Positions 1,001-16,786 of a stretch of DNA of 32,000 nt are shown piece after piece (the stretch's first letter is position 1; every line of letters starts with the position of its first letter). The DNA is taken from positions 1 to 32,000 of the forward strand of contig JAPZAR010000009.1 in the NCBI GenBank assembly GCA_027460535.1, in the 5' to 3' direction. The notes below the pieces were generated by a model. That model was given only the letters and a program-made list of their open reading frames with translations, ran no database searches and was not told the origin of the DNA. A program made the position numbers and the translations under genes. This DNA is from Candidatus Methanoperedens sp. (GTDB lineage: Archaea > Halobacteriota > Methanosarcinia > Methanosarcinales > Methanoperedenaceae).

Positions 1001-1646
1001 CATTTCAGGTTTCAAGATATACGACAACAATAATAATGGGATATGGGATGCTGGCGAGCACGGAATTGCAGGCTGGAATATCACTATTAAGAATAGCACA
1101 ACAGACGCAGAGATAGCCACTTCAACAACAGATGCTATCGGCTTCTATCAGCTCACGAACCTAGCTCCTGGCGACTATAATGTAACCGAAGAGACGAGAG
1201 CAGGATGGAGTCCCACCAACGCCACTTTCAAAGTGATAACTCTCAATAATGACATCATGAACCTGAACTTCACGAATCATCAAGCACCGATACAAGGTCG
1301 AGGTGCAGGAGGCGGAGGTGCACCGCCTGCAATAGTTAATTTTGCTCCTCCATCACCGGCCATTGATACTCCAGTAGCTACCAGGCAATTCAATATCACC
1401 GTTAACCAGACCGTGAATGTTACCTGGTACATCAACGGTACTCAGGTTCAGGTCAATAATAGTATCACTGATGCAAAGTACACCAATACCAGTGCATCCA
1501 TTGGAATATGGAACGTGAGCGCGGGTGCAATAAATGATAATGGCAGCGATATACAAACATGGACCTGGACAGTGTCAAACATGGCCATAGTTTCGGAAAT
1601 TACCTCTACCTATCCCACTCCACCAGATAAGACAACCCAGCACTAA
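927..1646 (+). CDS. Cell-surface protein, C-terminal part (SdrD/Cna-B-like beta-sandwich plus second copy of the beta-sandwich repeat). Probably the same gene as 2..1000, separated by a frameshift.
   Basis: FNISGFKIYDNNNNGIWDAGEHGIAGWNITIKN...GFYQLTNLAPGDYNVTEETRAGWSPTN resembles SdrD-B/Cna-B folds. The repeat APPSPAIDTPVATRQFNITVNQTVNVTWYINGTQVQ... matches residues in the upstream ORF. There are at least 14 N-x-S/T sequons in 239 aa. Confidence 0.7.
   Translation: MSNANGTANQKWDRNVLTPPVTTFNISGFKIYDNNNNGIWDAGEHGIAGWNITIKNSTTDAEIATSTTDAIGFYQLTNLAPGDYNVTEETRAGWSPTNATFKVITLNNDIMNLNFTNHQAPIQGRGAGGGGAPPAIVNFAPPSPAIDTPVATRQFNITVNQTVNVTWYINGTQVQVNNSITDAKYTNTSASIGIWNVSAGAINDNGSDIQTWTWTVSNMAIVSEITSTYPTPPDKTTQH
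1344..1519 (+). repeat. Intragenic direct repeat, copy 2
   Basis: Hand alignment with 752..928 gives about 92% identity. Confidence 0.85.
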
Positions 1647-1798
1647 GCTTGCATCAACCGCAGATGAACGCAGATAAACGCAGATTTGTTGATAGGGATT
1701 AAGATAAATTGAATTACATAAACTATATATTTCCACAGTTGCGGCGCTCTGCAAGAACCGGGGCAACCACCGGCCCCCGCATGTCCAAAAGCGCCCTA

Positions 1799-1806
1799 TT
1801 TATATA
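1799..1806 (+). promoter_or_regulatory. Archaeal TATA box (TTTATATA) upstream of the wecB stub
   Basis: Canonical TTTATATA lies about 27-31 nt upstream of the ATG at 1833, which implies a leaderless or very short-leader transcript. Confidence 0.55.
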
Positions 1807-1832
1807 TCCGGCGTTATATCTAAGAGCAGAAC

Positions 1833-1958
1833 ATGAAAATCATCTCAATCGTTGGCGCCCACCCCCAGTTCATCAAGTGTGCGCCACTGTCCCGGGAGAT
1901 TATAACGGAGCGTGAAGAAATCCTCATCCATACTGGCATACAGGGCAGGGACGGATAA
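1833..1958 (+). pseudogene. wecB: UDP-N-acetylglucosamine 2-epimerase (WecB family), 5' stub of only 41 codons
   Basis: My own translation gives [35 protein letters not shown], then IQGRDG and a stop. The first 35 aa match the conserved non-hydrolysing 2-epimerase N-terminus (MKI..VVGARPQFIK.APVSR...E.LVHTGQHYD). Similarity is lost at HTG, and the ORF was too short for the ORF track. Confidence 0.75.
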
Positions 1959-1984
1959 GAGGGAAATTATAGAGGATTATATAA

Positions 1985-2941
1985 ATGAAAATATTACACA
2001 TCGGTGACGTTGCAGGTATCCCACTAATATTAGCTAAAGCACAAAGAAAATTAGGTTATAAAAGTGATGTACTGTCATATCAGAGGCATCCTTTTGATTA
2101 TGGAGTTGATTATTGTTTTCCATTAAATTCAGGATTTCCTATAAATCATATAGAAAAGATGATAATATTTTCAAAATTCTTAAGTAAATATGATGTATAT
2201 CATTTCCATGGGGGAACATTATTACCAAAAGGGATTGATTCAGTATTATGGAAATATCTAAAAAAAAAATTGGTTATTCACCACCACGGTTCTGATATCA
2301 GATACACTGGTGAAAAATTAATTTATTCAAAATTTGCAGATAAAATTTTTGTTTCTACGCCCGATCTTTTGGAGTGGTCTCCATGTGCTATATGGATACC
2401 AAACCCTATTTCTCTTGATAGTTTTCATTATGTGGGAGTCGAAAATAAAGTCAAATCAGAAAATATTAATATCGTCCATGCACCAAGTAATAGAGCAAAA
2501 AAAGGTACCGAATATATACTAAAAGCCATTAACAAACTGAAAAATGAAGGCTATAAAATTAATCTAATTTTAGTAGAAAACATGCCACATAATAAAGCGA
2601 TTGAATACTATAAAAAGGCAGATATTGTAATAGATCAATTACTAATTGGTTGGTATGGTTTGTTTGCTGTTGAGTGCATGGCACTGGGAAAGCCGGTATG
2701 CGTATATATTCGCGATGATTTGGAATCATATATGCCCTTTAACCCGATAATCAATACCTCATCAACAAATATTGCTGAAAATCTTAGAATATTGATAGAA
2801 GATGGAAGGTTAAGAAAAGAAGTGGGAGATAAAGGTAGAAAATACGTTGAAGAGATGCATGATGCAAAAGAGGTAGCAAAGGAAGTAATCCGTTTTTATA
2901 ATGTGGATGAGATAACAAGTGGATTACACTCCCCAAAGTAG
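1985..2941 (+). CDS. Glycosyltransferase, GT-B fold (group 1/GT4-like)
   Basis: The C-terminal half (VHAPSNRAKKGTEYILKAI...KADIVIDQLLIGWYGLFAVECMALGKPVCVYI) looks like a GT-B nucleotide-sugar binding domain. The gene is AT-rich and a purine-rich (agagga) stretch, a possible weak SD, precedes the ATG. Confidence 0.6.
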   Translation: MKILHIGDVAGIPLILAKAQRKLGYKSDVLSYQRHPFDYGVDYCFPLNSGFPINHIEKMIIFSKFLSKYDVYHFHGGTLLPKGIDSVLWKYLKKKLVIHHHGSDIRYTGEKLIYSKFADKIFVSTPDLLEWSPCAIWIPNPISLDSFHYVGVENKVKSENINIVHAPSNRAKKGTEYILKAINKLKNEGYKINLILVENMPHNKAIEYYKKADIVIDQLLIGWYGLFAVECMALGKPVCVYIRDDLESYMPFNPIINTSSTNIAENLRILIEDGRLRKEVGDKGRKYVEEMHDAKEVAKEVIRFYNVDEITSGLHSPK

Positions 2942-3165
2942 CCAAATTTTTTTAATATTCATTATGCAGTCCTCAGATTATATCTTTATATGCTAAACTT
3001 AATGCCATTACCCTTCAGGGTTGGGAGCCTCATTTGCGATACTAGACCTCATGCATCAATAGTCAACACCTCTTCAAATTAGTTGTGTTATGGTATTCCT
3101 CCATATATGATGCCTTATCACAGATATTCTATGCGACTTTATTGAAAAGATTGTAACCTCAAAGT

Positions 3166-3651
3166 TCAATATCGATTTTTAATAAATTTAGCTGGAACGC
3201 CAGCAACGACAGAGTAAGGCGCTACATCTTTAGTTACAACAGCGTTTGCGCCAATTATTGCCCCCTCATTAATTGTAATTCCAGGCATAATAATAACATT
3301 GACACCGATCCACACGTTATCTTCAATATCAATCAGTGCAGATTTGCGTCTTGCCATTATTATATGAGCATTTTTATCGCTATAATCATGCGTTGCAGAA
3401 GCTAATGTTACATTATCTGCTATAAAAATATTATTTCCAATGTGTATCCCACCACGCCCAAAAAACCTGCAATTGTTTCCGATTCGGACGTTATTACCAA
3501 TGATAATATTTTCTGGTCCGTCGAACACAAGATTTTCTCCGATTCTAACATGTATACCAACTTTTCTCATAAACAATTTATAAAACTTTGTTCTTATTTT
3601 TGTTTTGATTAATTTATACATAATATAATATTCAAAAAATATTGTTCTCAT
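3166..3651 (-). CDS. Hexapeptide-repeat (left-handed beta-helix) O-acetyltransferase, LacA/WbbJ-like
   Basis: Repeated [LIV]-G-x-x-x-x hexapeptides (IGNNVRIGNNCRF..IHIGNNIFIADNVTL..VWIGVNVIIMPGITINEGAIIGANAVVTKDVAPYSVVAGVPAKFIKNR). Confidence 0.85.
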   Translation of the reverse strand: MRTIFFEYYIMYKLIKTKIRTKFYKLFMRKVGIHVRIGENLVFDGPENIIIGNNVRIGNNCRFFGRGGIHIGNNIFIADNVTLASATHDYSDKNAHIIMARRKSALIDIEDNVWIGVNVIIMPGITINEGAIIGANAVVTKDVAPYSVVAGVPAKFIKNRY

Positions 3652-4043
3652 ATAACACCTGTTAATTTTAATCTGATGTCTTGCTCTTCAAGCGGGGTAC
3701 GTCACTTGCTATAGGTATTCTCATACGTCAATGGATGTGAGCAGCTTCATACTCTTTAAGTTCTTTTTGGCAGGTCATTGGTTCAAGCCCTAACTTATAA
3801 TCATCGGATCCACCAGACCAGCCAACATAAGGGCATTCTATTTCATTAATCTTTTGGCAATATATGGACTTCTCATTTTCTTCTTTTCCCATAAAGTGAG
3901 AAAACTCAAGCCCATTACTGGGGAGTAGAGTGGGTATTTTCCTTCCGTATAACTGACATCCATCCTTACATCTTTTAATAAACCATTTTCATCTTGCTAT
4001 TGATTTAGCTGGCATTTTTTCACCCTTAATATTTAAGCAATGT

Positions 4044-4250
4044 TTGTGGACTTCACCCCAAAAAGTGGACAGGTAGTTAAGAAACATTCTTAACAAACAT
4101 CTACACAAAGGGTGCAAATATGAAAACAAGAAAAAAATACACACGAGAAATCAAAATATCGATTCTTCATGAACTTGAGAACGGAAAAAGTGCAGCACAG
4201 GCGTGAATATTCATAACATGCTCAAATACCATGGAAAATTATAAGTTAAT
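4044..4250 (+). mobile_element. Remnant of an IS3-family insertion sequence (putative left end plus truncated, frameshifted OrfA HTH)
   Basis: ATG at 4120 gives MKTRKKYTREIKISILHELENGKSAAQA then a stop (4204-4206). This resembles the IS3/IS911 OrfA N-terminus (..RKKYT.EFK...V.....G.S.A...). In a shifted frame, NIHNMLKYHGKL continues the similarity. The upstream TGTGGAC...GTGGAC at about 4044 could be the terminal IR. No intact transposase is present. Confidence 0.5.
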
Positions 4251-4328
4251 CGAAATCCTCTATTATGGGAAGGATTCCTATTATTAAAAAATATGGCGCA
4301 ATTCAAATATATTTATTCAAGGGGTTAA

Positions 4329-5003
4329 ATGACAAAAAATGGAGATTTGCTAAAATCAAACTATTGGGATAAAAGATATTCAAGTGGTGGTGGGAGTGGA
4401 GAAGGTTCGATTGGAGAATATAGAGATTTTAAATGGGAAGTCATAACTCAATATGTACCTAAAATCGACAATGTTTTAGATATTGGATGTGGTGATTTAA
4501 GTTTCTGGGAAGGACGAGATTGTGAACATTATACTGGAGTTGATATTTCTCCCAACATTATTGAAAAAAATAGAAAAAATAAGCCGCATTGGAATTTTAT
4601 GATTAGTAATTCAGAAAAAAAGTTAAATTTAAAATCTGATCTTGGTATCTGTAATGATGTGCTTTTTCATATTATGGATGATGCTATATTTGAAAAAATC
4701 CTCAATAACTTATGTGAATATTCCAAAAAATATATATTTATATTTACATGGAATAAAAATCCATTTGTTAAGTTCCAATATAGATTAAATCTTTTAAGTT
4801 CATTAAGGTTTGATTTATTTCTGAGAAATCTGTTGTTAGATAATACCTCAGATGGGAAGTACCAAAAATATAGGGATTTAAGTAATTATTATAGAATTTT
4901 TAAAGAAGCTGGTTTTGATTTAGTCAACATTCATCCTGCGCCTATTAAACCGTATATTGGGGCAATGTATGTTTTTAGGAAAAAGAATGACAAAATTAAT
5001 TAA
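4329..5003 (+). CDS. Class I SAM-dependent methyltransferase
   Basis: Motif I is VLDIGCGDLSFWEG, followed by YTGVDIS. Size is 224 aa. Confidence 0.75.
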   Translation: MTKNGDLLKSNYWDKRYSSGGGSGEGSIGEYRDFKWEVITQYVPKIDNVLDIGCGDLSFWEGRDCEHYTGVDISPNIIEKNRKNKPHWNFMISNSEKKLNLKSDLGICNDVLFHIMDDAIFEKILNNLCEYSKKYIFIFTWNKNPFVKFQYRLNLLSSLRFDLFLRNLLLDNTSDGKYQKYRDLSNYYRIFKEAGFDLVNIHPAPIKPYIGAMYVFRKKNDKIN

Positions 5004-5040
5004 TATATTAAATTATATTAAAAGATTGCAAGGCAGGTAG

Positions 5041-6528
5041 CTATTTGAGGTATACGAGATTCTTTAAAAAAAAGCAGCTCTCACGTATAATATCCATGAA
5101 ATACATCTTATCTTCTTTTTTCAGAAAAAATGTGGCAATCATAAAAACATAAACGCACAAAATCATAATACCCAATAAATACAGGTTTATAAATTCAAAT
5201 CGTATAAAAATTAAAATAGCCGAAAAACTTAGACCAGATATTTTGGCATACCATTTAAAGTCCATTTTTATTTTTATCATCTTGATAGCGATAAATAAAT
5301 TTAAAAAAGATGCTAAAGATAAAGATACCGCTGTAGCTACTGCTGCCCCAGCGATACCAAACTTGGGTATGAGTAAGATGTTAAACACAACATTTGTTAT
5401 TGCGGAAATGCCAACTATTTTCAAACCTATATCTGGTCGACCCACACCTGTTACAGCCCCACCTATTGATTTAGCAACTCCAAGAATCACTGTTCCTACA
5501 ATTAATATTTCCAAAGGCAAAACGGCATAAATAAATCTGGATCCAAATATTATCGTTATAATCTCTTTCGCAAAAAATCCAACCCCCAATCCAATTGGTA
5601 ATAAAATACAAGCAGTATATTTCATACTTTTATCAATCATAGTTTGCAACGCGACATGATTATTCGTACTCCAATACTCGGAAGTCGCAGGATATGTTAT
5701 CGTTTGAATAGCTTGGGGAACCAGCCAGATAAATGTGCTGAAGGCAACTGCCACACCATAGTACCCTACATCCACCGCTGTTAAAAAATATCCTATCAGA
5801 AGTGTATCTGCCTGGTAATTTATCGTAGCCATTGCATTTGCCCCAAGTATTTGTACACCGAATAACAGTATTTCTTTAGTTGTCTGAGCATACCCCTCCA
5901 GCACAATCTCAAAATAGTGCCTACTGATTTTCATTAGATAAAAACATGACCCTATAGAGGAGAGTACAATGCCTGTTACCACACCAGCAACCCCAAACCC
6001 CTGGTAGATCAATACTAGTGAGACTATTAGCATCAAAATACTCTGGAGAATTGTTGCAATCCCATATTTCTTCATCTCCCGGAGTCCGTTCAGAAATCCA
6101 AGCAGAGTCCCACTCACCAAGGCAAAAGGAAAGACGGGAGATAAAATTATCAAAAGGCTGGACAATCCTGGCATCTTGAATATTCCTTCGAATATGCCCG
6201 ACGAAATGAAAAATAGTATACTAAACCCGATACCAAGGAATAAAGAAGTAATAACGCCGGCAGATACAATCGAATTTGTTTTTCTTCTATCTCCTTTATG
6301 TTCAGCCACATATTTTATTATTGCAGCAGGAATCCCTATCGCAGCAAATAGCATCGCTATTCCATAAATCGTGAAAGCCATACGGTATAATCCGAGCTCT
6401 TCGGCGCCAAGATACCTCCCAAGAAGCACGGTTATGATAAAGCCGAGGAGCATGCTGATTACAGAGGCTATGAATGTTATGCCGACATCAAATGCGAATT
6501 TTTTGGGTTCTTTCATATTCTCACACAC
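5041..6528 (-). CDS. Polysaccharide/oligosaccharide flippase (Wzx / MOP superfamily)
   Basis: A 495-aa protein, hydrophobic throughout (many predicted TM helices). The N-terminus (LLGRYLGAEELGLYRMAFTIYGIAMLFAAIGIPAAIIKYVAE) is typical of polysaccharide biosynthesis (RfbX/Wzx) proteins. Confidence 0.8.
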   Translation of the reverse strand: MCENMKEPKKFAFDVGITFIASVISMLLGFIITVLLGRYLGAEELGLYRMAFTIYGIAMLFAAIGIPAAIIKYVAEHKGDRRKTNSIVSAGVITSLFLGIGFSILFFISSGIFEGIFKMPGLSSLLIILSPVFPFALVSGTLLGFLNGLREMKKYGIATILQSILMLIVSLVLIYQGFGVAGVVTGIVLSSIGSCFYLMKISRHYFEIVLEGYAQTTKEILLFGVQILGANAMATINYQADTLLIGYFLTAVDVGYYGVAVAFSTFIWLVPQAIQTITYPATSEYWSTNNHVALQTMIDKSMKYTACILLPIGLGVGFFAKEIITIIFGSRFIYAVLPLEILIVGTVILGVAKSIGGAVTGVGRPDIGLKIVGISAITNVVFNILLIPKFGIAGAAVATAVSLSLASFLNLFIAIKMIKIKMDFKWYAKISGLSFSAILIFIRFEFINLYLLGIMILCVYVFMIATFFLKKEDKMYFMDIIRESCFFLKNLVYLK

Positions 6529-6589
6529 TTAATTACTTCATAAGGTAAAAGTGTTGGAAACATTTAGAATTAAATTTCTGATTGTTTTG

Positions 6590-7762
6590 TTATTTTCCAT
6601 TTTTTTCACATATTATTTTTTCGTAAACATCCAACTCTTTTTTAATCCGTGTTTCCCAACTTCTTTCTTTTATTATTGTTTTTCTGGCGTTTTTTCCCAA
6701 TGTTTTTCCCAGCTCAGGATTTTCATATAAAAGTTTGAGTTGTTCTGCAAAATAATCTATATCCCCGGATTTTACTAAAAGTCCATTCTCCATATGTCTG
6801 ATTAGTTTGCTTGTCCCACCGCTATCAAATACCACTATTGGTTTTCCAGATGCCATAGCTTCCAGAACGGAGCGATTTAGATTGCTATAAAGGCTTGTAG
6901 CAATAACTACATCAGCAATTGATAAATATTCTGTAATCAGATCTATTGAAACCCCTCCTAGAAATTTTACGTTCTTCTCTAAAGAATATTCTTTAGCTAA
7001 CTTGACTAATTCGTCCTTTAAAGTACCTTCACCTGCAAGAAGAAGACAACTATTGGTTTTGGTTTTATTCAAAAAAATTCCAAATGATTTTATAGCTAAA
7101 TCAATATTTTTCACAGGAATTAAAGAGCTTGTTGATAATATTATAAAATCAGATTCCGTTAATTTGGATTTTTCGATTAACTCTTTATTTTTTGGTTTTG
7201 CTTTAAAAAAATTGGTATCTATTCCATGATAGACAACAGTAACTCGATTTTTCCATATTTTTTTGAATTTTTCTGGGGCTATTGAGCCATCATCCAAAAT
7301 AAAAGCATGATCAGGCTTGAATAATTTTGCCAATATAGCCTCTTGAAAACCAGAAAGTCTTGAATATGCATCATCTGCACCGTGCATCATAGCTACAACT
7401 GGAACCCCCCTTATTTTCTTAAACATAATACATACTGCTGCTGCTTCCATATAATGCACTTGAATCAAGTCAAATTTCTTGGTTTTTCTTAAATATAAAA
7501 AAACTTTAAAAAGATAAATCAACTGATTTAAAGGGGTTACAGGAATATGGAATATCCCTTTTATTGGTTTAAATTTAATTCTTATTATTGGAACTTCAAA
7601 CCTATTATCAAATTCTTTACATTTGCATTCTTCGCCAAAATCAGGTGCAATTATTCGTTGGTCAACATTTTTGTTAATATTTTTTGATAGTTCAATGATA
7701 TGAGTTACAGAACCTCCTTTGATTGGATAAAACTCATATACAATCCTAAGCAACTGTATCAT
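6590..7762 (-). CDS. Glycosyltransferase family 4 (GT-B)
   Basis: C-terminal signature SVLEAMASGKPIVVFDSGGTSKLIRHMENGLLV (E-x7-E type). Overlaps the upstream gene by 17 nt. Confidence 0.85.
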   Translation of the reverse strand: MIQLLRIVYEFYPIKGGSVTHIIELSKNINKNVDQRIIAPDFGEECKCKEFDNRFEVPIIRIKFKPIKGIFHIPVTPLNQLIYLFKVFLYLRKTKKFDLIQVHYMEAAAVCIMFKKIRGVPVVAMMHGADDAYSRLSGFQEAILAKLFKPDHAFILDDGSIAPEKFKKIWKNRVTVVYHGIDTNFFKAKPKNKELIEKSKLTESDFIILSTSSLIPVKNIDLAIKSFGIFLNKTKTNSCLLLAGEGTLKDELVKLAKEYSLEKNVKFLGGVSIDLITEYLSIADVVIATSLYSNLNRSVLEAMASGKPIVVFDSGGTSKLIRHMENGLLVKSGDIDYFAEQLKLLYENPELGKTLGKNARKTIIKERSWETRIKKELDVYEKIICEKNGK

Positions 7763-8702
7763 ACCGTTCTCCTAACTCTTGAGGAGTTATAAATAAAACT
7801 TCTAATTTCTTTTTCCTTGCAATTTCTACAATGTTGTTTAGATTTCTCTTAAAGTTATTTAACGAAAATAGCCCCTTCTCGTCTTTAATGTCTGAGGGAT
7901 GAAAATATGTAGACAAGAAGGCTTCTTCTTCATTACGATTAACGACAATTTTAATTGCATTTTTAAAAAATAATGGATGTTTTGCGATATTTGCTGCTAT
8001 AATTCCTTTTCTCGTTAGAACACGTAAATAGAATGGTATAGGATAAGTTGTTATTGGAATTTCCACAATTTTATGATTATTAGAGGGGTCACTGTCCTCG
8101 ATTTTATAATCATGTTTTGATGGAAAATAAGGATATCTTGATGTGTTTTTCCAATCATATATATTATCAATAGTGCCATTGTTTTTAATCCCCGGAATAG
8201 CGGAGAGATCATTCAAGATACCAAGAGAGTTTAATATGTTCATTGTGTAATTATTATGAAAATCCCAACCCATTCTTGTACTTTTGACTCTGAAAATTTT
8301 AGAAATTTCTTTGTAGCCTTTCTCAAGGCAATGGGATATCCAATTTTTATCTTTTATTTCTTGATACCATATATTTTTTATTTCATTTAATTTCCATAGA
8401 TGAGGATGCCAACCTATTTCATCTCCAGATTTTTCAAATTCATTCCACAATGATACATATTCTCTTACAGGATAGCACCAATCTCCCCATATTATATTTA
8501 TTTGATGATCGGATCTAAGATACCATATAATTTTTGGAGGTTTTTTCTGTTCGTCTTCAAATGTTTTTATCTCTTCTTTTAATCTGATAACAGATTGAAT
8601 AACATCATCCCAAGCACTTTCTTTATTAAAAATAGCTCTTTGATTGACTTCAATTAAGGGATCCGTGTCGCATCCAATTGTAACAAATAATTTTTTTATC
8701 AT
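7746..8702 (-). CDS. Putative CE4-like polysaccharide deacetylase (weak assignment)
   Basis: TIGCDTDP near the N-terminus resembles CE4 motif 1 (Asp pair). GDEIGWHPHLW resembles CE4 motif 2 (GHEIG.H.). I recognise no other family. Confidence 0.4.
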   Translation of the reverse strand: MIKKLFVTIGCDTDPLIEVNQRAIFNKESAWDDVIQSVIRLKEEIKTFEDEQKKPPKIIWYLRSDHQINIIWGDWCYPVREYVSLWNEFEKSGDEIGWHPHLWKLNEIKNIWYQEIKDKNWISHCLEKGYKEISKIFRVKSTRMGWDFHNNYTMNILNSLGILNDLSAIPGIKNNGTIDNIYDWKNTSRYPYFPSKHDYKIEDSDPSNNHKIVEIPITTYPIPFYLRVLTRKGIIAANIAKHPLFFKNAIKIVVNRNEEEAFLSTYFHPSDIKDEKGLFSLNNFKRNLNNIVEIARKKKLEVLFITPQELGERYDTVA

Positions 8703-8703
8703 T

Positions 8704-9579
8704 CTATTGCTTATAAAGTTTTAGAGCCGTTTCCACTATTTTAGACTTAATAAATCCAATCGGAATTCTGTATATATAATATTGCCTATATTCTCCACCG
8801 AAACCTTTTTTGAACTTTGTTGGTCCATGTTCTTTAGTTATAACAGCGCCACCCATATCATAGTAAGGATATCCCTGTTTTTTCGCCCATTTTATTATTT
8901 CCCAGTGCAATAGGTTGTTAGGGCGATCTTTAATATAACTCAAGTCGGTAGCTCCTAACCAATATAAAGGTACTTTATCAATTAATAAAAAAGCCCCGGC
9001 GACTACTTTATCATCAACTTTTGCTACAAATAGACGAGATATGTCTGGATATTTGAATGTTTCGTACACCAAACTACGTGGCTGTGCACTAAATTTTTTA
9101 ATACCTGCTGTACTCTCATATACTTTCCACCAGTCCTTAAAATCATTTTCATTTTTTGCATATTCAATGGTAACACCCTTTTTCTCGGCCTGTCTAACAT
9201 AATTCCTTGTTGTTTTGTTTAGATGTGTCCAGAGATAATCTTCAGGACTGTCAAGATTTTTAATAAATGTTCCATCGGATTTTACTATAGATTTTTCAAT
9301 TGCACTGTCTTTATATGGAGTCAATATTTCTAAAATAGCAGCATTCCTTTCTTTACATATAGTTTGAGCTTTCTGGATAGTAACTAGAATATTTTCTAAA
9401 TCAGGAGAATGCATTTTCATAAATGTATATCCAAAAATCGGAAGCATATGAAAATAAACAATTGTGTTGTCAATTTTAAGAATTTCAAAGTTTTTGTGTT
9501 TACAATATATTTTCATAAATTTCTCATTTTGCATTATTTTATAGCCATTCCACTCTGTTGTGTTTCCGTTCTTATTCAT
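8704..9579 (-). CDS. FemAB-family / GNAT-fold aminoacyl (peptidyl) transferase-like protein
   Basis: NYVRQAEKKGVTIEY...FKDWWKVYESTAGIKKFSAQP...RLFVAKVDDKVVAGAFLLIDKVPLYWLGATD...RPNNLLHWEIIKWAKKQGYPYYDMGGA matches the FemAB/lipid II glycyltransferase-like pattern. Confidence 0.65.
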   Translation of the reverse strand: MNKNGNTTEWNGYKIMQNEKFMKIYCKHKNFEILKIDNTIVYFHMLPIFGYTFMKMHSPDLENILVTIQKAQTICKERNAAILEILTPYKDSAIEKSIVKSDGTFIKNLDSPEDYLWTHLNKTTRNYVRQAEKKGVTIEYAKNENDFKDWWKVYESTAGIKKFSAQPRSLVYETFKYPDISRLFVAKVDDKVVAGAFLLIDKVPLYWLGATDLSYIKDRPNNLLHWEIIKWAKKQGYPYYDMGGAVITKEHGPTKFKKGFGGEYRQYYIYRIPIGFIKSKIVETALKLYKQ

Positions 9580-9582
9580 GTT

Positions 9583-11373
9583 TCACACTGCTCTGACATA
9601 CCAAACATTCAACTCCCCATTATTATATAATTTATCAACTGTTTTATCCATCTCTAATTTTTCAAAATCTTCCTTATGAAACCTTCCAACTACTTTCCAT
9701 ACGGTGTCATAAATTGTCTTATCAAACTCTGTAATCACAGCGTATTTATCTTCAGTGTACGATTCACCTATATATTTATTTAAGTAATAATTAAAATGAT
9801 CAGGAATCTGTAGAGAAAAGTGTTTAATATCTGTTCTTTTATTTACTTCATTACTTCCTATTATTGCATCTGCAAATCGATACGTTGGACTCATAATCAC
9901 CGTATCTGATATCTTTCGATCCTTATTATCTACAAACCATTTCACTCCATACATATCCATCTGCGTAACTTGAACATTGGGTTGCAAAATATACGGAGAA
10001 GGAAATAAACTAAGTATGCTGATTATTGATGCCATCATAATTATAACTATACAAACTATGGCTGAGATATAATTTTTTTTGTTTATAAAATGTTTAAGGG
10101 TAAACCCGGCTGATATCGGCGTAAAAATCACGAGATATGCTAGTAATCTTTGCGAACCGATATTTCCAAGTCCTGGAATGATATTAAATAGATATGCCAC
10201 ATACATCATTCCTACAACGAAAGTTATGCCAATAAAAACCAATAAGTTGTTATTGCGTTTTCTTTCTTCATGGTTTTTAAATAAGATTATGGCAGCAATA
10301 ATTGATAGAACCAAAAATATAATGTCATCTCCCATAATTTTAAGAATAAGATTTACAAAATCAAGACCATGAACGTTTATTTTATTCAATCTTTCTCCCA
10401 TCTGAGCAATTACGTCTTGACCGTACCCTGTTGTAAGTGCATTATATAAAAGATGAATATTAATCTTAAATCCTTGAAATGATAATATCCAGGGAAGAAG
10501 AATTGTGAGAACAATGAATGTGGAAGTTATCGGAAAAAGATATGGAATGTTATGCCAAAAAACATTTTTATTTCCAATAATATGAATTAAACAACTTATA
10601 ACTCCAATTGTTAATATCATTATAATGAGCATCAATGAAGATAGTGGGTGGAAAAAGGGGAATAATACCAATGTAACGACTAACAAGAGTTTATGTTCTA
10701 AGGGAAATCTATTTAATAAAGATTTAAAGAATAAGAAAAAAACGAGTGGAAGATAAAGTATAGACCACCCGTTTGGCATAAGATAGACATCATAACCATT
10801 AAATAAAACTCCACCGATTGCTGCCACAGATAAGAGCTGTGCCTCCCTCGATGACAATGCGGTAGTAGCAAGTAGGTATATAGAAACTACATAAAAAATG
10901 GAGAGTAACGCAGTACTGTGATTTACTATTAACTCAATTGGCGCACCAGAACTAGATATAAGCATAGTTAATAAAATATGGGTAATAGGATAGAAATTAT
11001 CGCTTGGAATATGACCCGTAAATAGAATATCCTTTACAAATCCTATATGTGAGATATTGTCACCGTTCCAAGTGTAATAACCCCTTATGAATGGAATGTA
11101 AAGTAAGGTCACTCTGCTTAAAATAAGTATCAAAAATCCCAATTGCCAGAAGTTACCGTATTTATATTCTTTCGTATAAACTTGATGAACTATTATAGCC
11201 ACTCCACCAGCAATGCTAATTATTAAGAGAACCCATACTGAAATTGGGGTGGATTCATAAATTGATAGTTCAAAATCTTTGCTTGGATTAGTGTAGGCTA
11301 TTAGGGTTGATAATGATATGAACACAAAGCAAAGTATCGCCACAATTTTTAGTTTACAGTCGATTCGTGCCAT
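9583..11373 (-). CDS. Polytopic membrane protein with a C-terminal soluble domain. Candidate glycan polymerase or GT-C-type enzyme; family not recognised.
   Basis: 596 aa. The first 460 or so residues are hydrophobic helices, and the last 130 or so are polar (PNVQVTQMDMYGVKWFVDNKDRK...). No WWDYG (AglB) motif was seen. It sits mid-operon between glycosyltransferases. Confidence 0.45.
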   Translation of the reverse strand: MARIDCKLKIVAILCFVFISLSTLIAYTNPSKDFELSIYESTPISVWVLLIISIAGGVAIIVHQVYTKEYKYGNFWQLGFLILILSRVTLLYIPFIRGYYTWNGDNISHIGFVKDILFTGHIPSDNFYPITHILLTMLISSSGAPIELIVNHSTALLSIFYVVSIYLLATTALSSREAQLLSVAAIGGVLFNGYDVYLMPNGWSILYLPLVFFLFFKSLLNRFPLEHKLLLVVTLVLFPFFHPLSSLMLIIMILTIGVISCLIHIIGNKNVFWHNIPYLFPITSTFIVLTILLPWILSFQGFKINIHLLYNALTTGYGQDVIAQMGERLNKINVHGLDFVNLILKIMGDDIIFLVLSIIAAIILFKNHEERKRNNNLLVFIGITFVVGMMYVAYLFNIIPGLGNIGSQRLLAYLVIFTPISAGFTLKHFINKKNYISAIVCIVIIMMASIISILSLFPSPYILQPNVQVTQMDMYGVKWFVDNKDRKISDTVIMSPTYRFADAIIGSNEVNKRTDIKHFSLQIPDHFNYYLNKYIGESYTEDKYAVITEFDKTIYDTVWKVVGRFHKEDFEKLEMDKTVDKLYNNGELNVWYVRAV

Positions 11374-11421
11374 TCCAAACTTCCATTAAACGGCGAATTT
11401 CATTATTTCATTCATGGTGGA

Positions 11422-12621
11422 TTAAATCACATGTTGATAAATAATCAATATTTCCTTCGTTATGTTCTCCCATGTAAACCGGCCCGCATAAGCTCTTATT
11501 TTTTCGCAATCCCAATCCTTATCTAAAGCTATTAAAATCTTTTCCGCTAAATCTTTTGAGTTTGCAGGCTCTGCTAACAGCCCATAGTCTTCTGAAATTA
11601 TTATTTCTGGCACACCACCAACTTTTGTTCCCACGAATGGTTTTCCGCACCCTAGGCATTCGAACATAACTGTAGGATTGCCCTCGTTTAAACTCGGCAA
11701 AACGAAAATATCGCAGGCATTCATCCAGATTGGAATTTCGTTATGTGGTCGTCCTCCGGCGAGAATAATATAATTCTCCAATTCTGCTTTTTTAATTTGT
11801 TTTTGTAATTTATTTTTTAATTCTCCACTGCCTATAAGAATGCATAGAATATCTTTTCTATGCTTTACAATTTCTCTAATTGCCTCTATTAAATATTTTC
11901 CACCTTTTACTTCGTCGTATACACATCCAACGCTCAATAATATCATTCGGTCGAGTGGGAGATTTAGTTTTTTTCTGCATTCCTTTGAATCTTGTGGGTA
12001 AAACAGATCGCTTCGGAAACCATTTGGTATAACATGGACTGGTGTTTTCGCATTTAATTCTCTAATGCACTTCAGATTACTATTACTTACCGTTATAATA
12101 CAATCTGCAGAATCAAGAACGTATCTGATTTTTTCTTTCCATTCATTGTCTCTAAAAGGTAAATCATAAATATCATAGCCATGAGCAGTAACTACAAATG
12201 GTACATTATATTTCTCCTTAAGTTTTGCTCCAACATATCCTGCAGACCATAAAAAGTGAGAATGAATTAAATCGAATCTTATGTTATCCCTCTCTATTTT
12301 TCTCTCTACTATTTTAAAATGCTTCTCTCCAAGATTTTTATATCCTGAATCAGTAGGTACATAAAATATTGGTGTAACTATTACATTAACATTAGAAGGC
12401 TTGTCTGATAGATCAATTATCGAAGCCTTTTTAAATGGCCTCAAGCTATGTATAGGTAAGATATTCGAGATCTCCGAAATTGGATTATATCTGGACAAAA
12501 TAGTTACGTTATCAAAATGATCCGATACTTGTTCTATTTGATCCTTAACAAATGTACTATAACTATGGGAAACAAATAGTAGACTTTTATTAACTTTTGA
12601 CTCTACTGATTTTTTGCTCAT
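11422..12621 (-). CDS. Glycosyltransferase family 4 (GT-B)
   Basis: VLPSLNEGNPTVMFECLGCGKPFVGTKVGGVPEIIISEDYGLLAEP. Overlaps the AsnB-like gene by 32 nt. Confidence 0.85.
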   Translation of the reverse strand: MSKKSVESKVNKSLLFVSHSYSTFVKDQIEQVSDHFDNVTILSRYNPISEISNILPIHSLRPFKKASIIDLSDKPSNVNVIVTPIFYVPTDSGYKNLGEKHFKIVERKIERDNIRFDLIHSHFLWSAGYVGAKLKEKYNVPFVVTAHGYDIYDLPFRDNEWKEKIRYVLDSADCIITVSNSNLKCIRELNAKTPVHVIPNGFRSDLFYPQDSKECRKKLNLPLDRMILLSVGCVYDEVKGGKYLIEAIREIVKHRKDILCILIGSGELKNKLQKQIKKAELENYIILAGGRPHNEIPIWMNACDIFVLPSLNEGNPTVMFECLGCGKPFVGTKVGGVPEIIISEDYGLLAEPANSKDLAEKILIALDKDWDCEKIRAYAGRFTWENITKEILIIYQHVI

Positions 12622-14419
12622 TGAAAAACTCCCTCAACCAAATCTCCAAATTTATCCACTTCCAAATTGTATCTCCTGCGTTCTTTTTATTTTGAATATG
12701 ACTAATAAATATTTTTTCAACATCATTCCATTTCCAATAAGGTCTGTTCTTAAAACTTTCAGAATAAATAATTTCGTTACAAAATTCTACAATCTTTTCA
12801 TTCCTGAAAAGATCATCTACCGGGGCTTCAAATCCGATTTTATCCGTTCTATTTCTTATCATATCTGGAATATGATGATCTATAGCCCTTTTAAAAACCA
12901 CTTTTGTTTCTCCATTGCGTAATTTTTGTTCTGAAGGCAGAGAGTCTGCTGATTCTACAAGCCCAACATCCAGAAATGGAACTCTACTTTCGATGCTCCA
13001 CCTCATAGAGTTTTTGTCTTCCCATCGCAAAAGATGTGGGATCGCTGTAGAAAAAAGTGTTAATCTAAGGCTATCATTAAGGTTCATGGCTTTCCAGCGT
13101 GGGTCTTTATCGACACATACTTTTTCGAGCAGTTCATGGTTTATCCATTTTTTGTCAAATGTTTTCCAGAAGATATATTTCAACGATCCGGGCAGGAACA
13201 AAAATGCAAGCATTGAGTGTGGATAAACATTTTTAAAATTTTTTATATATAGCACCATTTCTTTAATCAACGTATGCCATTTATATTTTTTAAATAATTC
13301 ATAAAAATAATAACTAAAATAATATACATATCCTGCAAATATTTCATCTCCACCCTGTCCATCAAGGAGCACTTTTGCACCTTGCTCATGGGCAAGTTTC
13401 ATTACGCGATATTGGGCATAAGGACTTAATCCTGTTACTGGCTCTTCTTGCGCAATAATAAAGTCGTCCACTTCCTTTAGAAAATCATCAACGTTTATCG
13501 TAGTGAAAAATTGTTGCGTATTTGTATTTCTTCCAACCTCCTTGATATATTTACTCTCATCCTTCGAGCTTCCCGGTGCAACAAGAGAGAATGTAAAAAA
13601 TTTATTTTTTAAAATAGTATCCAGAGTGCATACTATTGCAGAGGAATCAATTCCACCGCTCAAACAACTGCCTATAGGAACATCGGATATTGTTCTTAAC
13701 CTGACACTTTCTATAAATTTATCTCGAATGACTCCATCATTTTTCACGTTTCTAAATTTTAAATGATACCATTGCTGGATATGATGATGATTGGTTTTAA
13801 GATCGTATGTCAGTGTACTGCCTTGTGGCAGCGAGTAGATATTTTCGAAAAATGTATATTGTTTATGATCTTCAAGGTTGAACGCCAGATACTCCATTAT
13901 CGCTCTCTCATTTGGAGCGGTTATAATGTCATGACATAAGATTCCAGTGATCATAGAGGAAAAAATAAATTTATTGTTTTCTATATAATAATAAAGAGGC
14001 TTGATAGAAAATTGATCCCTGCTTAAAACCAAAATATCTTTGTTTTTATCATATATGCAAAAAGCCCACATGCCATTAAATTGATTTACACAGTTTAAAC
14101 CGTACTCCTCATAAGCGTGAATTATTACTTCAGTGTCTGTGTTGCTTTTAAAAACATGCCCTTTTTTCAACAGGTCAGATCTTAACTCTTGAAAATTATA
14201 AACCTCTCCATTATAGGTTATCCATATCGTTTCATCTTCATTAGACATCGGTTGATGGCCTTTTTCGGATAAGTCAATTATCGAAAGTCGGACATGACCT
14301 AATGAGGTCTTCTCATCGACATAAATCCCTTTGTCATCTGGACCTCTATGTTTGGTTACTCCGTTCATATCTTCAATTAGAGCTGTATCTTTCCAATTGA
14401 ATCCATTGATGCCACACAT
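12590..14419 (-). CDS. Asparagine synthase (glutamine-hydrolysing) family amidotransferase, glycan-locus paralogue
   Basis: N-terminal nucleophile MCGINGF. PP-loop CLSGGIDSSAIV. 609 aa. Confidence 0.9.
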   Translation of the reverse strand: MCGINGFNWKDTALIEDMNGVTKHRGPDDKGIYVDEKTSLGHVRLSIIDLSEKGHQPMSNEDETIWITYNGEVYNFQELRSDLLKKGHVFKSNTDTEVIIHAYEEYGLNCVNQFNGMWAFCIYDKNKDILVLSRDQFSIKPLYYYIENNKFIFSSMITGILCHDIITAPNERAIMEYLAFNLEDHKQYTFFENIYSLPQGSTLTYDLKTNHHHIQQWYHLKFRNVKNDGVIRDKFIESVRLRTISDVPIGSCLSGGIDSSAIVCTLDTILKNKFFTFSLVAPGSSKDESKYIKEVGRNTNTQQFFTTINVDDFLKEVDDFIIAQEEPVTGLSPYAQYRVMKLAHEQGAKVLLDGQGGDEIFAGYVYYFSYYFYELFKKYKWHTLIKEMVLYIKNFKNVYPHSMLAFLFLPGSLKYIFWKTFDKKWINHELLEKVCVDKDPRWKAMNLNDSLRLTLFSTAIPHLLRWEDKNSMRWSIESRVPFLDVGLVESADSLPSEQKLRNGETKVVFKRAIDHHIPDMIRNRTDKIGFEAPVDDLFRNEKIVEFCNEIIYSESFKNRPYWKWNDVEKIFISHIQNKKNAGDTIWKWINLEIWLREFFNEQKISRVKS

Positions 14420-14420
14420 G

Positions 14421-15479
14421 CTAACCTAATATCTCATCTTTTATTTTTTCAAGACTCATGGGAAAATCTTCTAAAAACCGAACCATAAATCCAGTCACAT
14501 TTATTTTGTCTTTTAATAACGTCTCTCGTTTCTCGTTCCATTCCCTTTTTATCTCTGGCTTCTGTATAAGTTCGACCGCCTTTTTTATTGCTATATCGGA
14601 ATCATTATAATTAAACATTAGCCCATATTTTTGTTCAAGTTCGATGAAATTACCCATTGTCCCTGCAAGAGATGAAACATAAATTGCAGGAGTGCCCAAT
14701 ATTGCACTTTCAGTAGCCATCGTTGCCCCCTCTCCCATATACAAAGTGGCATAATACAATAAATCATGTATTTTCTCAGGAGGAACTTTAATCTTATAAT
14801 TTTCTAACTCATTATCCAGCCGCCCCTCAGAGGTGATATACACTCGACCATATTTCTCCAGTTCCTTAACCAATCTTATTTTATTTTGTATGCCATGCTG
14901 CCCGACGTCATGGCTCGCGCCCCAGGTAACAAATCGCAAAATGATAAATATATCCTCTTTGCTCAGTCCAAGCTCATCAAGAACAGCAGGGTCTGGTTTA
15001 AAATAATCCGGGTGCAAATAAGCGAGTTCATGATAGCCATTGTATCGAACTTGTTTTTTACCCAGGCTCTTTTTGAAACAGGATGGTGTAATGATGACAT
15101 CTGTAAACGGATATGTGATCGCCTCGGCGAAAGTTGCATGCTCCGTGTCATTAAAGATAATCGCTTTTTTGCCGAGCAATTTGGAAACATGGGCTGCGCA
15201 TGGATTAAGTATTCCTGTTAAGATATCTGGTTTAAATTCTTTTGCAAGAATTAGTAGTTTATAATCTCGAATTAGCCATTCCTTCATTAGTCCAATCTTT
15301 CCCCTCCCCATAGTGGTCAGAACTATATGTGGAATATTATATGCTTTAAGCAAGTCAATAGCTACATCCTTATCCCGTGCTGTGACCATTACCTCATGCC
15401 CATGCTTTTCGAGAGCCCAGATAGTGTTCTTGAAAAAATGAACATGTGCCGGATGCCCGATATCTATTAGTATTCTCAA
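14421..15479 (-). CDS. DUF354 family protein (GT-B/epimerase-like fold), first gene of the island operon; TTG start
   Basis: MRILIDIGHPAHVHFFKNTIWALEKHGHEVMVTARDKDV is the typical DUF354 N-terminus. An AGGAGC Shine-Dalgarno lies 6 nt upstream of the TTG. Confidence 0.7.
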   Translation of the reverse strand: MRILIDIGHPAHVHFFKNTIWALEKHGHEVMVTARDKDVAIDLLKAYNIPHIVLTTMGRGKIGLMKEWLIRDYKLLILAKEFKPDILTGILNPCAAHVSKLLGKKAIIFNDTEHATFAEAITYPFTDVIITPSCFKKSLGKKQVRYNGYHELAYLHPDYFKPDPAVLDELGLSKEDIFIILRFVTWGASHDVGQHGIQNKIRLVKELEKYGRVYITSEGRLDNELENYKIKVPPEKIHDLLYYATLYMGEGATMATESAILGTPAIYVSSLAGTMGNFIELEQKYGLMFNYNDSDIAIKKAVELIQKPEIKREWNEKRETLLKDKINVTGFMVRFLEDFPMSLEKIKDEILG

Positions 15480-15485
15480 TTAGGT

Positions 15486-15491
15486 GCTCCT
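15486..15491 (-). promoter_or_regulatory. Shine-Dalgarno (AGGAGC) for the DUF354 gene
   Basis: The reverse complement of gctcct is 6 nt from TTG 15479. No room or obvious TATA lies between it and stub A, which suggests read-through from upstream. Confidence 0.5.
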
Positions 15492-15507
15492 TTCAATTAT
15501 TCGATCA

Positions 15508-15909
15508 CTAATTAAAAACCATCTCCTCATGAATACAAATCGTCCTGACATCGCATACCTTCCTGAACTCCTTCAACTCCCTCCCGAACATCTCTATCGC
15601 TTTCCCATGATCCCCATTCGCCTTCCCCAATACCTCGTAATGGTACCCCACCTCATGCCCCATACCCTCTATCTCGCGCATGATCTCAGGACGGAAAACA
15701 TTCATCCTGAAATAATACGTCGCCCTTATCCCCAGCTCCTGCTCCACCCTCGCAGTGTTCAGCGCGCTCATGGGTTTGCGGTCGATGTCGTGGCGCATCA
15801 TGGCAAAGCGCGGGGGCAGCTTCCCTGCCTGGAAATATTCCGCCAGCGTGGGCTGCGCCACTGCGGAGCAGAGGGAGCGGAATTTGGAGAGGGTAAAATC
15901 GAGGGGCAT
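15508..15909 (-). pseudogene. Polysaccharide deacetylase (CE4/NodB-like), 5' stub copy A (about 128 genuine codons plus a junction tail)
   Basis: FAMMRHDIDRKP...ATYYFRMNVFRPEIMREIEGMGHEVGYHYEVL carries the CE4 motifs (Asp pair; GHE[IV]G.H). Similarity ends at ..VRTICIH, followed by EEMVFN and a stop at the AT-rich junction. About 60% GC in a spot count. Confidence 0.75.
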
Positions 15910-15985
15910 AAGGTAGCTCTGGTTCAGATCTCTTTGCTTTTCCTAAACATTTTTTAAGCTCCTTATCTGGATATTTCAACGATTG

Positions 15986-16417
15986 TTATGATCTTTTTTG
16001 TTCTAAAAGCGCTTTTTTTACGTCGTCAGGCATTTTGTTAAGGACAAAATCAAACACTTCAACAGCTAATCTTAATGCTTCATCCGCATCTTGTGGATCT
16101 GGCTGAATTACATCTCCAGGGTACCTAAAAGCGATGGCATAAGGTGTCAAAATGGAAGAAATATCCATGATTTGTTCAAATTCAATATCTAATTCCTTGC
16201 ACTGTTCGACCAGGAATGAAAGATCATGGATCTTTTGGAAAGGTGTATCCTTTAAGGTCAGATATGCCTTCAAAGATTTCTCGGCAGCCTGCTGGCAATG
16301 GTATACAGCGGTATCAAGGTAGGGAATATCACCACTTAGGAGACGACGAGCCGAACCAATATCATGTTCAGCTTTTATAAGCCATTGAACTACTTCATTG
16401 ATCCTTGGATCATCCAT
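15986..16417 (-). CDS. HEPN domain protein (toxin component of an MNT/HEPN pair)
   Basis: WLIKAEHDIGSARRLL...AVYHCQQAAEKSLKAYL...HDLSFLVEQC...PYAIAFRYPGD is typical of a HEPN (PF05168-like) helical bundle. It overlaps the upstream MNT gene by 8 nt. Confidence 0.8.
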   Translation of the reverse strand: MDDPRINEVVQWLIKAEHDIGSARRLLSGDIPYLDTAVYHCQQAAEKSLKAYLTLKDTPFQKIHDLSFLVEQCKELDIEFEQIMDISSILTPYAIAFRYPGDVIQPDPQDADEALRLAVEVFDFVLNKMPDDVKKALLEQKRS

Positions 16418-16730
16418 ATAATACTTTACCTTTGGATAGAATATTATTTACAAGTGATGTTCTTACCAATTTATTCTTTTCAACCTCATCATGAGTCTGC
16501 ACAATAATGTCGATAGGATATTTTATACCCTGCAATACTTCATAAATAACTCTTGCTCGCCGATAAGATGGTTGATCTGAATGGGGAAGGATAACAAATA
16601 GGTCTATATCGCTTGATTCTTCAGGTTTACCCCACACATGTGAACCAAAAAGAATAATCTTTTCAGGATGGACTTTTTCAATAATCCTCTTTTTAATCTC
16701 ATCTAATAATTCATTATTAAATTGTCTCAT
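16410..16730 (-). CDS. Minimal nucleotidyltransferase (MNT, antitoxin component of an MNT/HEPN pair)
   Basis: ILFGSHVWGKPEESSDIDLFVILP is the G-S-x(n)-D-x-D pol-beta nucleotidyltransferase motif. 106 aa. Confidence 0.85.
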   Translation of the reverse strand: MRQFNNELLDEIKKRIIEKVHPEKIILFGSHVWGKPEESSDIDLFVILPHSDQPSYRRARVIYEVLQGIKYPIDIIVQTHDEVEKNKLVRTSLVNNILSKGKVLYG

Positions 16731-16786
16731 TATTGTTTATTCTCTTCAGTTTGTTTATTTCTGGTTATCTTGCTATGAATTACTTC

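Follow-up and report, generated by a model that had tools for sequence, protein, structure and literature searches.

Mosaic glycan genes between truncated boundary genes: a probable replacement-type surface-glycan locus of Candidatus Methanoperedens

The 32,000-nucleotide (nt) stretch of Candidatus Methanoperedens sp. analysed here (assembly GCA_027460535.1, contig JAPZAR010000009.1, positions 1 to 32,000; hereafter the window) harbours a cluster of glycan genes in 13.5 kb of AT-rich DNA between a truncated 5' part (stub) of wecB and a 5' stub, designated stub A, of a CE4-like deacetylase gene. Judging from its nearest relatives, the cluster is best described as a patchwork drawn from the glycan gene pool of the family itself, and it is considered probable (about 0.75) that the window contains the Methanoperedens version of a Euryarchaeota-wide surface-glycan (N-glycan or exopolysaccharide) locus, which is of the replacement type, is exchanged module by module and bears 5' stubs of its boundary genes. 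The original prediction, made from the window alone, proposed a glycan locus of the O-antigen or capsule-switching type with breakpoints inside the boundary genes, and the exchange of blocks between lineages described below supports it in this respect. It further proposed a single foreign insert of 13.6 kb; instead, the cluster proved to be composed of at least three or four blocks, a mosaic in which the nearest relatives differ from block to block. The genes of the cluster, stub A and two conserved core genes are, in order of position:

1985–2941, plus strand: GT-B glycosyltransferase, first of the AT-rich genes and oriented like the wecB stub; best relative in locus L110, 61% amino acid (aa) identity
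3166–3651, minus strand: hexapeptide-repeat acyltransferase (domain scan)
4120–4206, plus strand: 5' remnant of an IS3-type transposase, 28 codons; HTH_Tnp_1 (PF01527), profile positions 1–27 of 75, E=5e-4, below the Pfam cut-off
4329–5003, plus strand: S-adenosylmethionine-dependent methyltransferase (domain scan)
5041–6528, minus strand: Wzx-type oligosaccharide flippase, final gene of the minus-strand operon; PF13440 and PF01943, E=1e-32 to 1e-34
6590–7762, minus strand: GT4 glycosyltransferase (domain scan)
7746–8702, minus strand: 318-aa protein with a weak DUF3473 match (E=0.0076, 16.7 bits against a cut-off of 29.6 bits)
8704–9579, minus strand: FemAB/GNAT-like transferase, forming a two-gene module with 7746–8702
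9583–11373, minus strand: 596-aa hydrophobic membrane protein, probably polytopic; no Pfam match
11422–12621, minus strand: GT4 glycosyltransferase, exchanged block 2
12590–14419, minus strand: AsnB-like amidotransferase, exchanged block 2
14421–15479, minus strand: DUF354 gene, TTG start with an AGGAG Shine-Dalgarno sequence upstream
15508–15909, minus strand: stub A, 5' part of a CE4-like deacetylase gene, an intact open reading frame (ORF) of 133 aa corresponding to residues 1 to about 137 of homologues of 252–258 aa
18270–18797, plus strand: YdjM, conserved core anchor
18801–20306, minus strand: two-domain GT2 glycosyltransferase, conserved core anchor

The mosaic structure became apparent from comparison with related loci (given L numbers), of which 80 were fetched around the GT2 gene, whose own top relatives belong to Methanoperedenaceae. 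Block 1 (15904–14437, stub A and DUF354) is 88–98% identical per 100 nt, and 90% identical overall, to L094, with sharp edges at the ATG of the stub and at the stop codon of DUF354; beyond DUF354 the glycan genes of L094 differ, and the GT2 and YdjM genes of the two loci share 59–74% identity. Block 2 (14500 to about 11650, the AsnB-like gene and most of the adjoining GT4 gene) matches L002 with 87–98% nt identity, after which nothing aligns, while the identity of stub A and DUF354 to L002 is 61–70%. Overall, the exchanged blocks are 82–98% identical at the nt level within loci of 59–78% core identity, and divergence at four-fold degenerate sites is 0.09–0.25 in the blocks versus 0.56–0.71 in the core genes; because of this low divergence, the blocks must have moved between lineages long after these had split. 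Meanwhile the Fem and CE4-like pair (7746–9579) shares 72% nt identity with the M. nitroreducens-like locus L141, in which the GT2 gene is 75% identical, and the closest homologues of the CE4-like protein with a named source are from Methanoperedens. The flippase is 65% identical at the aa level to that of L099.

Computed GC content, GC content at third codon positions (GC3) and tetranucleotide analysis confirmed the AT-rich interior that had been noticed from spot counts, and the composition of the window is not uniform: GC content is 45.8% at 1–1832, 33.3% at 1959–15479 and 45.4% at 18270–32000, GC3 ranges from 0.21 to 0.36 in the genes of the cluster and from 0.40 to 0.62 in the flanking genes, and the tetranucleotide signatures of the two flank halves correlate with r=0.86, compared with 0.46–0.61 between cluster and flank. 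However, AT-richness cannot be taken as a sign of foreign origin here. Since in almost every relative the GC content falls from the flank upstream of GT2 to the DNA downstream of it (from 0.40 to 0.29 in L005, and from 0.66 to 0.49–0.51 in a Methanoculleus), low GC is a standing property of the locus, and the Fem and CE4-like genes diverge roughly to the same extent as the core GT2 gene. The deacetylase gene directly follows GT2 in many of the 80 loci, with a DUF354 homologue nearby in most, and the order GT2-(YdjM)-deacetylase-DUF354 is syntenic across Methanosarcinales and beyond; outside Methanoperedens the deacetylase is full length (252–258 aa). The GT2/YdjM anchor is followed by differing downstream genes in L002, L003, L005, L006, L094, L139 and L141.

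The right-hand junction, at which the similarity of stub A to the deacetylase ends after ..ICIH at 15529 and DUF354 starts with its TTG at 15479, 28 nt past the stop of stub A, was confirmed as first described. Its attribution to the arrival of this island, on the other hand, is contradicted by the finding that ..ICIH, the 28-nt spacer and the TTG of DUF354 are homologous in five lineages (the window, L094, L139, L005 and L002); stub A moves together with DUF354 as block 1. The DUF354 proteins of the lineages sharing the junction are down to 55–58% identical, that of the window having 89% aa identity to L094 and 58% to L002. The junction between stub A and DUF354 is thus, from its distribution, ancient, and would stem from a single deletion. 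The tail of stub A, EEMVFN (SLTNISY.. in L005), goes back to the opening codons of an older copy of DUF354, and positions 15511–15531 with part of the spacer to 15479 derive from the start of that older copy (ATGAGG..TTTTTAAT), so that the junction holds two nested scars, a DUF354 5' stub within the deacetylase stub. Protein databases contain many short forms that are about 139 aa long and have related tails, and also other truncation points, at 62 to about 195 residues.

The ratio of nonsynonymous to synonymous substitution rates (dN/dS) of the short ORF of stub A is 0.08–0.30 (0.19–0.30 among the copies sharing the junction), nonsynonymous changes are fewer than expected under neutrality (p=0.0015 versus L094, 1e-7 versus L139 and 3e-7 versus L005), and indels among these copies stay in frame. 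Because of the deficit of nonsynonymous changes and the in-frame indels, stub A is a maintained short ORF under purifying selection and not a fresh wound from the arrival of the cluster. A CE4 (NodB) barrel has its D-D and HxxxH motifs in the N-terminal half, the C-terminal half contributing additional catalytic motifs. Stub A retains MRHDID and GHEVGYH and is without residues ~138–257 of the full-length homologues, and therefore does not hold a complete catalytic barrel; the full-length deacetylase itself matches PF01522 weakly (E=0.065). Antisense ORFs of up to 157 aa, which run across the GC-rich stubs (15484–15957 on the plus strand, with equivalents in L003, L005 and L006), were set aside as probable by-products of codon bias.

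It had also been suggested that DUF354 was brought in as a functional substitute for the destroyed wecB. This was rejected, as the full-length deacetylase gene abuts DUF354 in L095 and its stop codon overlaps the DUF354 start in other genera, from which DUF354 emerges as the native, ancestral neighbour of the deacetylase; in relatives it co-occurs with both intact deacetylase and intact wecB. The second proposed substitute, the “CE4-like” product of 7746–8702, owes its label to the single sub-threshold DUF3473 match listed above. No match of this protein was found by sequence search of PDB, and its homologues carry no precomputed Pfam domain; PDB sequence searches were likewise uninformative for the deacetylase and DUF354, and nothing useful on DUF354 was found in the literature.

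As for its gene content, the cluster is a surface-glycan assembly locus: it comprises the Wzx-type flippase, three or four GT-B glycosyltransferases, the AsnB-like, FemAB-like, acyltransferase and methyltransferase genes, DUF354 and the 596-aa membrane protein. The flippase, the glycosyltransferases and modifying enzymes, the differing content at one and the same site and the exchange between lineages are all features of Wzx/Wzy-type clusters. As to a Wzy-type polymerase, no match was found in Pfam, NCBIfam, PADLOC or PHROGs for the 596-aa protein, which has positional homologues in related clusters; these are distant and were seen in the DNA retrieved on either side of GT2 in related loci, the one of L139 being inside the cluster. 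The protein may be put forward as a candidate for the polymerase or for oligosaccharyl transfer. The eight-gene minus-strand operon was verified, with junctions of +1, -32, +48, +3, +1, -17 and +61 nt, five of the seven being tight. The transposase remnant lies in the 677 nt that separate the acyltransferase gene from the methyltransferase gene and constitutes a further scar within the cluster. Apart from these 28 codons, no integrase or recombinase domain was found in the ORFs of 1–20306; neither were tRNA genes in the window or direct repeats bracketing 1959–15507.

Stub A turned out to be one of three 5' copies of the deacetylase gene, a fact that had escaped notice earlier. The copies (A, B and C) alternate with two cassettes of small genes, the features between stub A and YdjM being:

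15986–16417, minus strand: HEPN gene, 143 aa (PF05168, E=4.4e-25)
16410–16730, minus strand: MNT gene of the NTP_transf_2 family, 106 aa (PF01909, E=1.5e-12; also a PADLOC candidate family)
15986–16894, minus strand: the MNT-HEPN cassette including a 164-nt upstream spacer with a TATA-like motif at 16794
16895–17201, minus strand: stub B, deacetylase residues 1 to ~100, 92% nt identity to stub A, frameshift near codon 20
17309–17868, minus strand: second cassette, overlapping ORFs of 98 and 94 aa, the former with a precomputed PF27273 (MJ0235) domain
17943–18132, minus strand: stub C, deacetylase residues ~4–62, split over three frames, the most decayed copy; adjoins the native divergent intergenic region

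The adjacent MNT and HEPN genes, which overlap by 8 nt (16410–16417), make up an MNT-HEPN type II toxin-antitoxin (TA) pair. The second cassette is presumed to be a TA-like pair as well; scans of its ORFs against NCBIfam, PADLOC and PHROGs gave no family match. An MNT-HEPN cassette occurs at the same place in L008, where a 1119-nt block including part of stub B has 88% nt identity to the window. The MNT proteins are 99% identical, compared with ~78% for the adjacent stub and 72% for core and flanks; this site, flanked by stubs, has therefore received the cassette by transfer from one species to another. A 10-nt repeat (TGAAATATCC) at both ends of the MNT-HEPN cassette was considered as a target-site duplication and rejected, since the L008 copy lacks it. 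Stub/TA arrays recur in six Methanoperedens-like loci, namely the window and the following five:

L003 (M. nitroreducens): 6 stubs; MazF, UPF0175, two DUF4258/DUF2283 pairs, AlbA_2 protein
L006: 3 stubs; BrnT/BrnA, AbrB/PIN
L008: 2 stubs; MNT-HEPN
L137: 4 stubs; C39 peptidase, DUF2283, PemK, HicAB
L139: 4 stubs; acylphosphatase, C39 peptidase

Decay in the window is greatest in the outermost stub, while the innermost one is intact, a gradient which fits a stack of successive events. No conserved motif was found at the stub/cassette junctions, the upstream sequences differing between arrays, and no description of such arrays in Methanoperedens was found in the literature. In one cassette slot of L003 (14933–16318) there is a 461-aa AlbA_2/HATPase_c_4 protein that matches PADLOC models associated with pAgo. 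In L006 (11600–12091) a stub is, as judged by eye, fused in frame to a BrnT-like C-terminal part and followed by a CopG/BrnA-type antitoxin gene (Pfam); the junction there thus truncated both genes.

The left-hand boundary is made up of these features:

296–1646, plus strand: surface protein gene of the left flank with LamG-like and SdrD_B-like domains (Pfam), GC 0.45–0.46, native
1799–1806, plus strand: TATA-box-like motif TTTATATA, read from the sequence, ~27 nt 5' of the ATG of the wecB stub
1833–1958, plus strand: 5' stub of wecB (UDP-GlcNAc 2-epimerase), 41 codons, of which residues 1–35 are homologous; GC 52%

The wecB stub was corroborated by its first 35 aa, which are 57–77% identical to wecB N-termini, and no 3' remnant or other piece of wecB was found across the window. 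Homology at the DNA level extends to ~1949, with the frame shifted by an 8-nt duplication (CATACTGG/CATACAGG), and the gene is cut at about codon 38. A search for homologues of the stub returned four short matches only, which are examples of other stubs and not orthologues. Such stubs are present in P0002/L093 and in L139, one of them being 89% identical over 65 nt within a run of 5' gene fragments. At 994–1409 of L093, 3' of a YdjM gene, serial gene-start fragments were recognised by eye: the N-termini of an NAD-epimerase, a DegT-like protein and wecB (31 aa), and a radical-SAM-like piece.

In L139 an intact wecB lies on the opposite strand and heads a short operon with a flippase, so that the full architecture reads deac'->DUF354->...<-flippase<-intact wecB, with an interior of 26–34% GC between boundary genes of normal GC. 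Beyond the intact gene there are a 26-codon wecB 5' stub, a ParE pair, a second wecB fragment and further TA genes. The convergent boundary genes of the original prediction are therefore correct as the general architecture; the single foreign origin and the right junction made by the island, which were part of the same claim, are not.

Several observations concern the DNA beside the wecB stub. The surface-protein gene is broken into ORFs 296–1000 and 927–1646 by an 8-nt deletion at 930; the missing octamer, CAATGGTG, is present in two contigs (L081 and L082) and reflects a strain variant or a difference in curation. The gene has an internal 180-nt repeat (748–927 and 1340–1519, 92% identical), and its domain is recurrent in many metagenomic surface proteins. 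Just 3' of its stop codon, at 1658–1685, there is a half-site, ACCGCAGAT(G/A)AACGCAGAT(A/G)AACGCAGAT, representing one arm of a palindromic repeat. This arm also occurs at 16649–16674 of L003, 9407–9432 of L005 and 8809–9256 of L015; in Methanolobus (L015) the repeat is arrayed in tandem with a period of 86 nt, and in M. nitroreducens it is found within the stub array. A start at exactly 1817 is shared by two Logan contigs that come from separate sequencing runs, 16 nt 5' of the ATG of the wecB stub. The shared start suggests a branch in the assembly graph, i.e. an alternative left context or a repeat.

The idea that the cluster uses captured native promoters is probably mistaken as to the promoter that stub A would supply: stub A is not situated beside the native divergent promoter, which lies by stub C, ~2.3 kb away, with two cassettes between stub A and the native divergent region. 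Upstream of the ATG, no homology shared by the three stub copies was found, and stub A is not preceded by the conserved leader of ~110 nt that was seen in L002, L005, L006 and L139. Transcription into DUF354 may start from the 76-nt spacer between HEPN and stub or arise by read-through. On the left, it is plausible from their arrangement that the wecB stub and the gene at 1985 are co-transcribed from the TATA box at 1799.

Taken as a whole, the locus most likely arose as follows. The ancestral order would have been GT2-(YdjM)-deacetylase-DUF354-...variable genes...<-wecB, and the AT-rich interior would be a replacement-type flexible island, the glycan modules of which were swapped among Methanoperedens lineages by recombination; in the window, the modules would be stub A with DUF354, AsnB with GT4, Fem with the CE4-like gene, the flippase and the left-hand genes. 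Both boundary genes are directed inward, so that whichever of them contains the breakpoint is left with a 5' stub on its outer side. The wecB stub would be the scar of such an exchange, the innermost deacetylase stub an old conserved short ORF that has co-travelled with DUF354 since one ancient deletion, and stubs B and C the fossil boundaries of earlier events. The incoming DNA would bring its own gene start together with donor upstream DNA, often a TA cassette, and the resident copy would remain as an extra stub. Campbell-type integration of circular DNA with the 5' part of the gene would yield the same structure, and plasmid-borne DUF354-GT4-GT2-flippase modules slightly favour, as we infer, this circular route. 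Composition, the mosaic of identity blocks, the shared junction, selection on the short ORF and the recurrent stub/TA arrays are observed; the mechanism of recombination, the direction in which modules were transferred, the sugar product and the pattern of transcription are inferred. Exchange of modules was most likely driven by pressure from viruses or extrachromosomal elements (ECEs).

Several alternatives may be weighed against this scheme. As the source is a contig of a metagenome-assembled genome and several public contigs stop inside repeats, at 1817, 15680 and 17045, the jump in composition and the stubs might be suspected to be artefacts of chimeric assembly or mis-binning. However, both junctions are crossed by independent NCBI, ENA and Logan assemblies from different samples, which excludes a chimeric assembly: the right-junction contigs L085 (8270–28797) and L086 (11904–26943) are 100% identical to the window, as are two Logan left-end contigs, and the left-junction contigs L081 (725–12941) and L082 (787–12044) differ from it solely by the 8-nt indel at 930. 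The proteins of the window were also matched exactly in contig JAPZAT010000041.1 of GCA_027460495.1, identical sequence is present in ENA and Logan assemblies, and the right junction exists in four other lineages, so that an artefact is extremely improbable. Hardly more credible, though not to the same degree, is a single event in which a foreign AT-rich island of 13.6 kb replaced the centre of the locus, cut both boundary genes, took over their promoters and supplied substitutes. The sharp shift in GC at both stubs, the convergent boundary genes, as in L139, and the lack of an integrase, which is compatible with recombinational replacement, would all agree with it. Nevertheless, the blocks differ in nearest relatives and ages, the right junction is common to five lineages with differing downstream genes, the deacetylase has DUF354 as its ancestral neighbour, AT-richness is general at the locus, the Fem/CE4-like divergence is core-like within Methanoperedens, and a remnant of an insertion sequence lies inside the block.

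A role of ECEs deserves more attention, although it is, on balance, unlikely to be the principal explanation: circular plasmids, Borg-like or other elements with glycan modules would have integrated by single-crossover homologous recombination at the deacetylase gene or wecB, thereby duplicating its 5' part, and then decayed to TA genes and a stub, with the AT-rich glycan modules circulating on elements of this kind. A DUF354-GT4-GT2-flippase module does exist on a 32-kb plasmid of Methanosarcina barkeri with ~33% GC (PLSDB), as well as on other Methanosarcina plasmids and in many haloarchaeal plasmid records of PLSDB; on this 32-kb plasmid, that of M. barkeri Wiesmoor (L136), the homologues of flippase, DUF354, GT4 and GT2 lie at 6605–17687. 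TA genes, such as those between the stubs, are typical plasmid-maintenance genes, and the stub repeats are direct and co-oriented. The GC content of the cluster also matches that of Borgs, 32–35% (PMC11208441). On the other side, no replication, partition or integrase genes are left in any array examined, no Methanoperedens ECE with the module was found (PLSDB has none, and Borgs were outside the search), and one-sided illegitimate joins during replacement by linear DNA could give the same structure. Somewhat more doubtful still is the notion that the 5' fragment of the deacetylase gene, and with it that of wecB, serves as a portable adaptor for homology or expression, making the boundary an integrase-free platform, driven by recombination, with which different Methanoperedens lineages would take up and reshuffle TA/defence cassettes and glycan modules. 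The short ORF would then be kept for that role, e.g. for translational coupling into DUF354 or as a recombination target, and the stub-plus-cassette units would be mobile, possibly via circular intermediates or ECEs.

Modular replacement at an old glycan locus remains the preferred reading, with several points weighing against it. No relative syntenic with the left flank was found, an exact look-up of the left-flank protein giving no match and a metagenome scan only distant paralogues of its repeated domain. Rearrangements are seen in several relatives: L001 is without a cluster beside YdjM, L141 has neither stub nor wecB, and L005 and L006 carry wecB on the opposite side of GT2. With 92% identity to stub A, stub B fits a recent local duplication or gene conversion equally well. 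Purifying selection on the short ORF lacks a functional explanation, for half a CE4 barrel should not be an enzyme.

For Methanoperedens, a methane oxidiser that is uncultured, discussion of genome plasticity now centres on Borgs and plasmids. The locus shows a second route, in which a surface-glycan cluster is rebuilt from modules of species-level lineages. The stacked stubs provide a readable record of exchanges, from which the sequence of events may be worked out and donors may be sought in metagenomes, and a truncated gene under selection and the repeated landing of TA genes at one stub-flanked site in different species are oddities that lend themselves to testing.

Among known systems, the classical counterparts are the O-antigen and capsule loci of bacteria. 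Closest in kind are replacement flexible genomic islands for exposed glycans, which clonal frames exchange with one another through homologous recombination; the cell-wall island of Haloquadratum walsbyi is an archaeal case (PMC4033161, PMC4535781). The locus of the window shares with such islands the same genomic position with differing gene content and the same function, recombination between diverged lineages with sharp identity edges, GC below that of the genome, and a Wzx flippase, glycosyltransferases and sugar-modifying enzymes with no integrase. It differs from them in being modular, a single cluster combining several blocks that differ in age, in having its boundaries within inward-facing genes and not at intact conserved flanking genes, and in its tandem 5' stubs with TA cassettes, one stub being kept as a selected short ORF.

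The locus is neither a classical integrative island, for which an integrase, a tRNA target and att repeats would be expected, nor an integron, since there is no integrase and the cassettes are separated by repeats that consist of coding fragments from a single gene, their 3' ends varying. With integron arrays and with archaeal gene capture at tRNA/int sites it has in common small co-oriented cassettes, many of them TA, which are stacked beside a conserved anchor and separated by repeats; unlike in these, there is no IntI or other integrase, no attC-like site and no tRNA target, and the repeats are protein-coding fragments of 190–400 nt and variable length. In rhs/cdi orphan arrays, the 3' part of a conserved core is fused to a toxin tip. 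The tandem units there likewise consist of a fragment of a conserved gene followed by a small variable gene pair, the fragment being usable as recombination homology, whereas in Methanoperedens the fragment represents the 5' start of a gene for a glycan enzyme, is unfused except for the BrnT fusion in L006, and is accompanied by ordinary type II TA pairs. The MNT-HEPN (MntA/HepT-type) pair is in itself ordinary as well, and what is unusual is that it lies between gene stubs and that another species has, at the same site, a match with 88% nt identity. Seen beside these systems, the glycan island is of an ordinary kind, here in a new organism, and its noteworthy parts are the arrays of stubs and TA cassettes and the short ORF that has been conserved.

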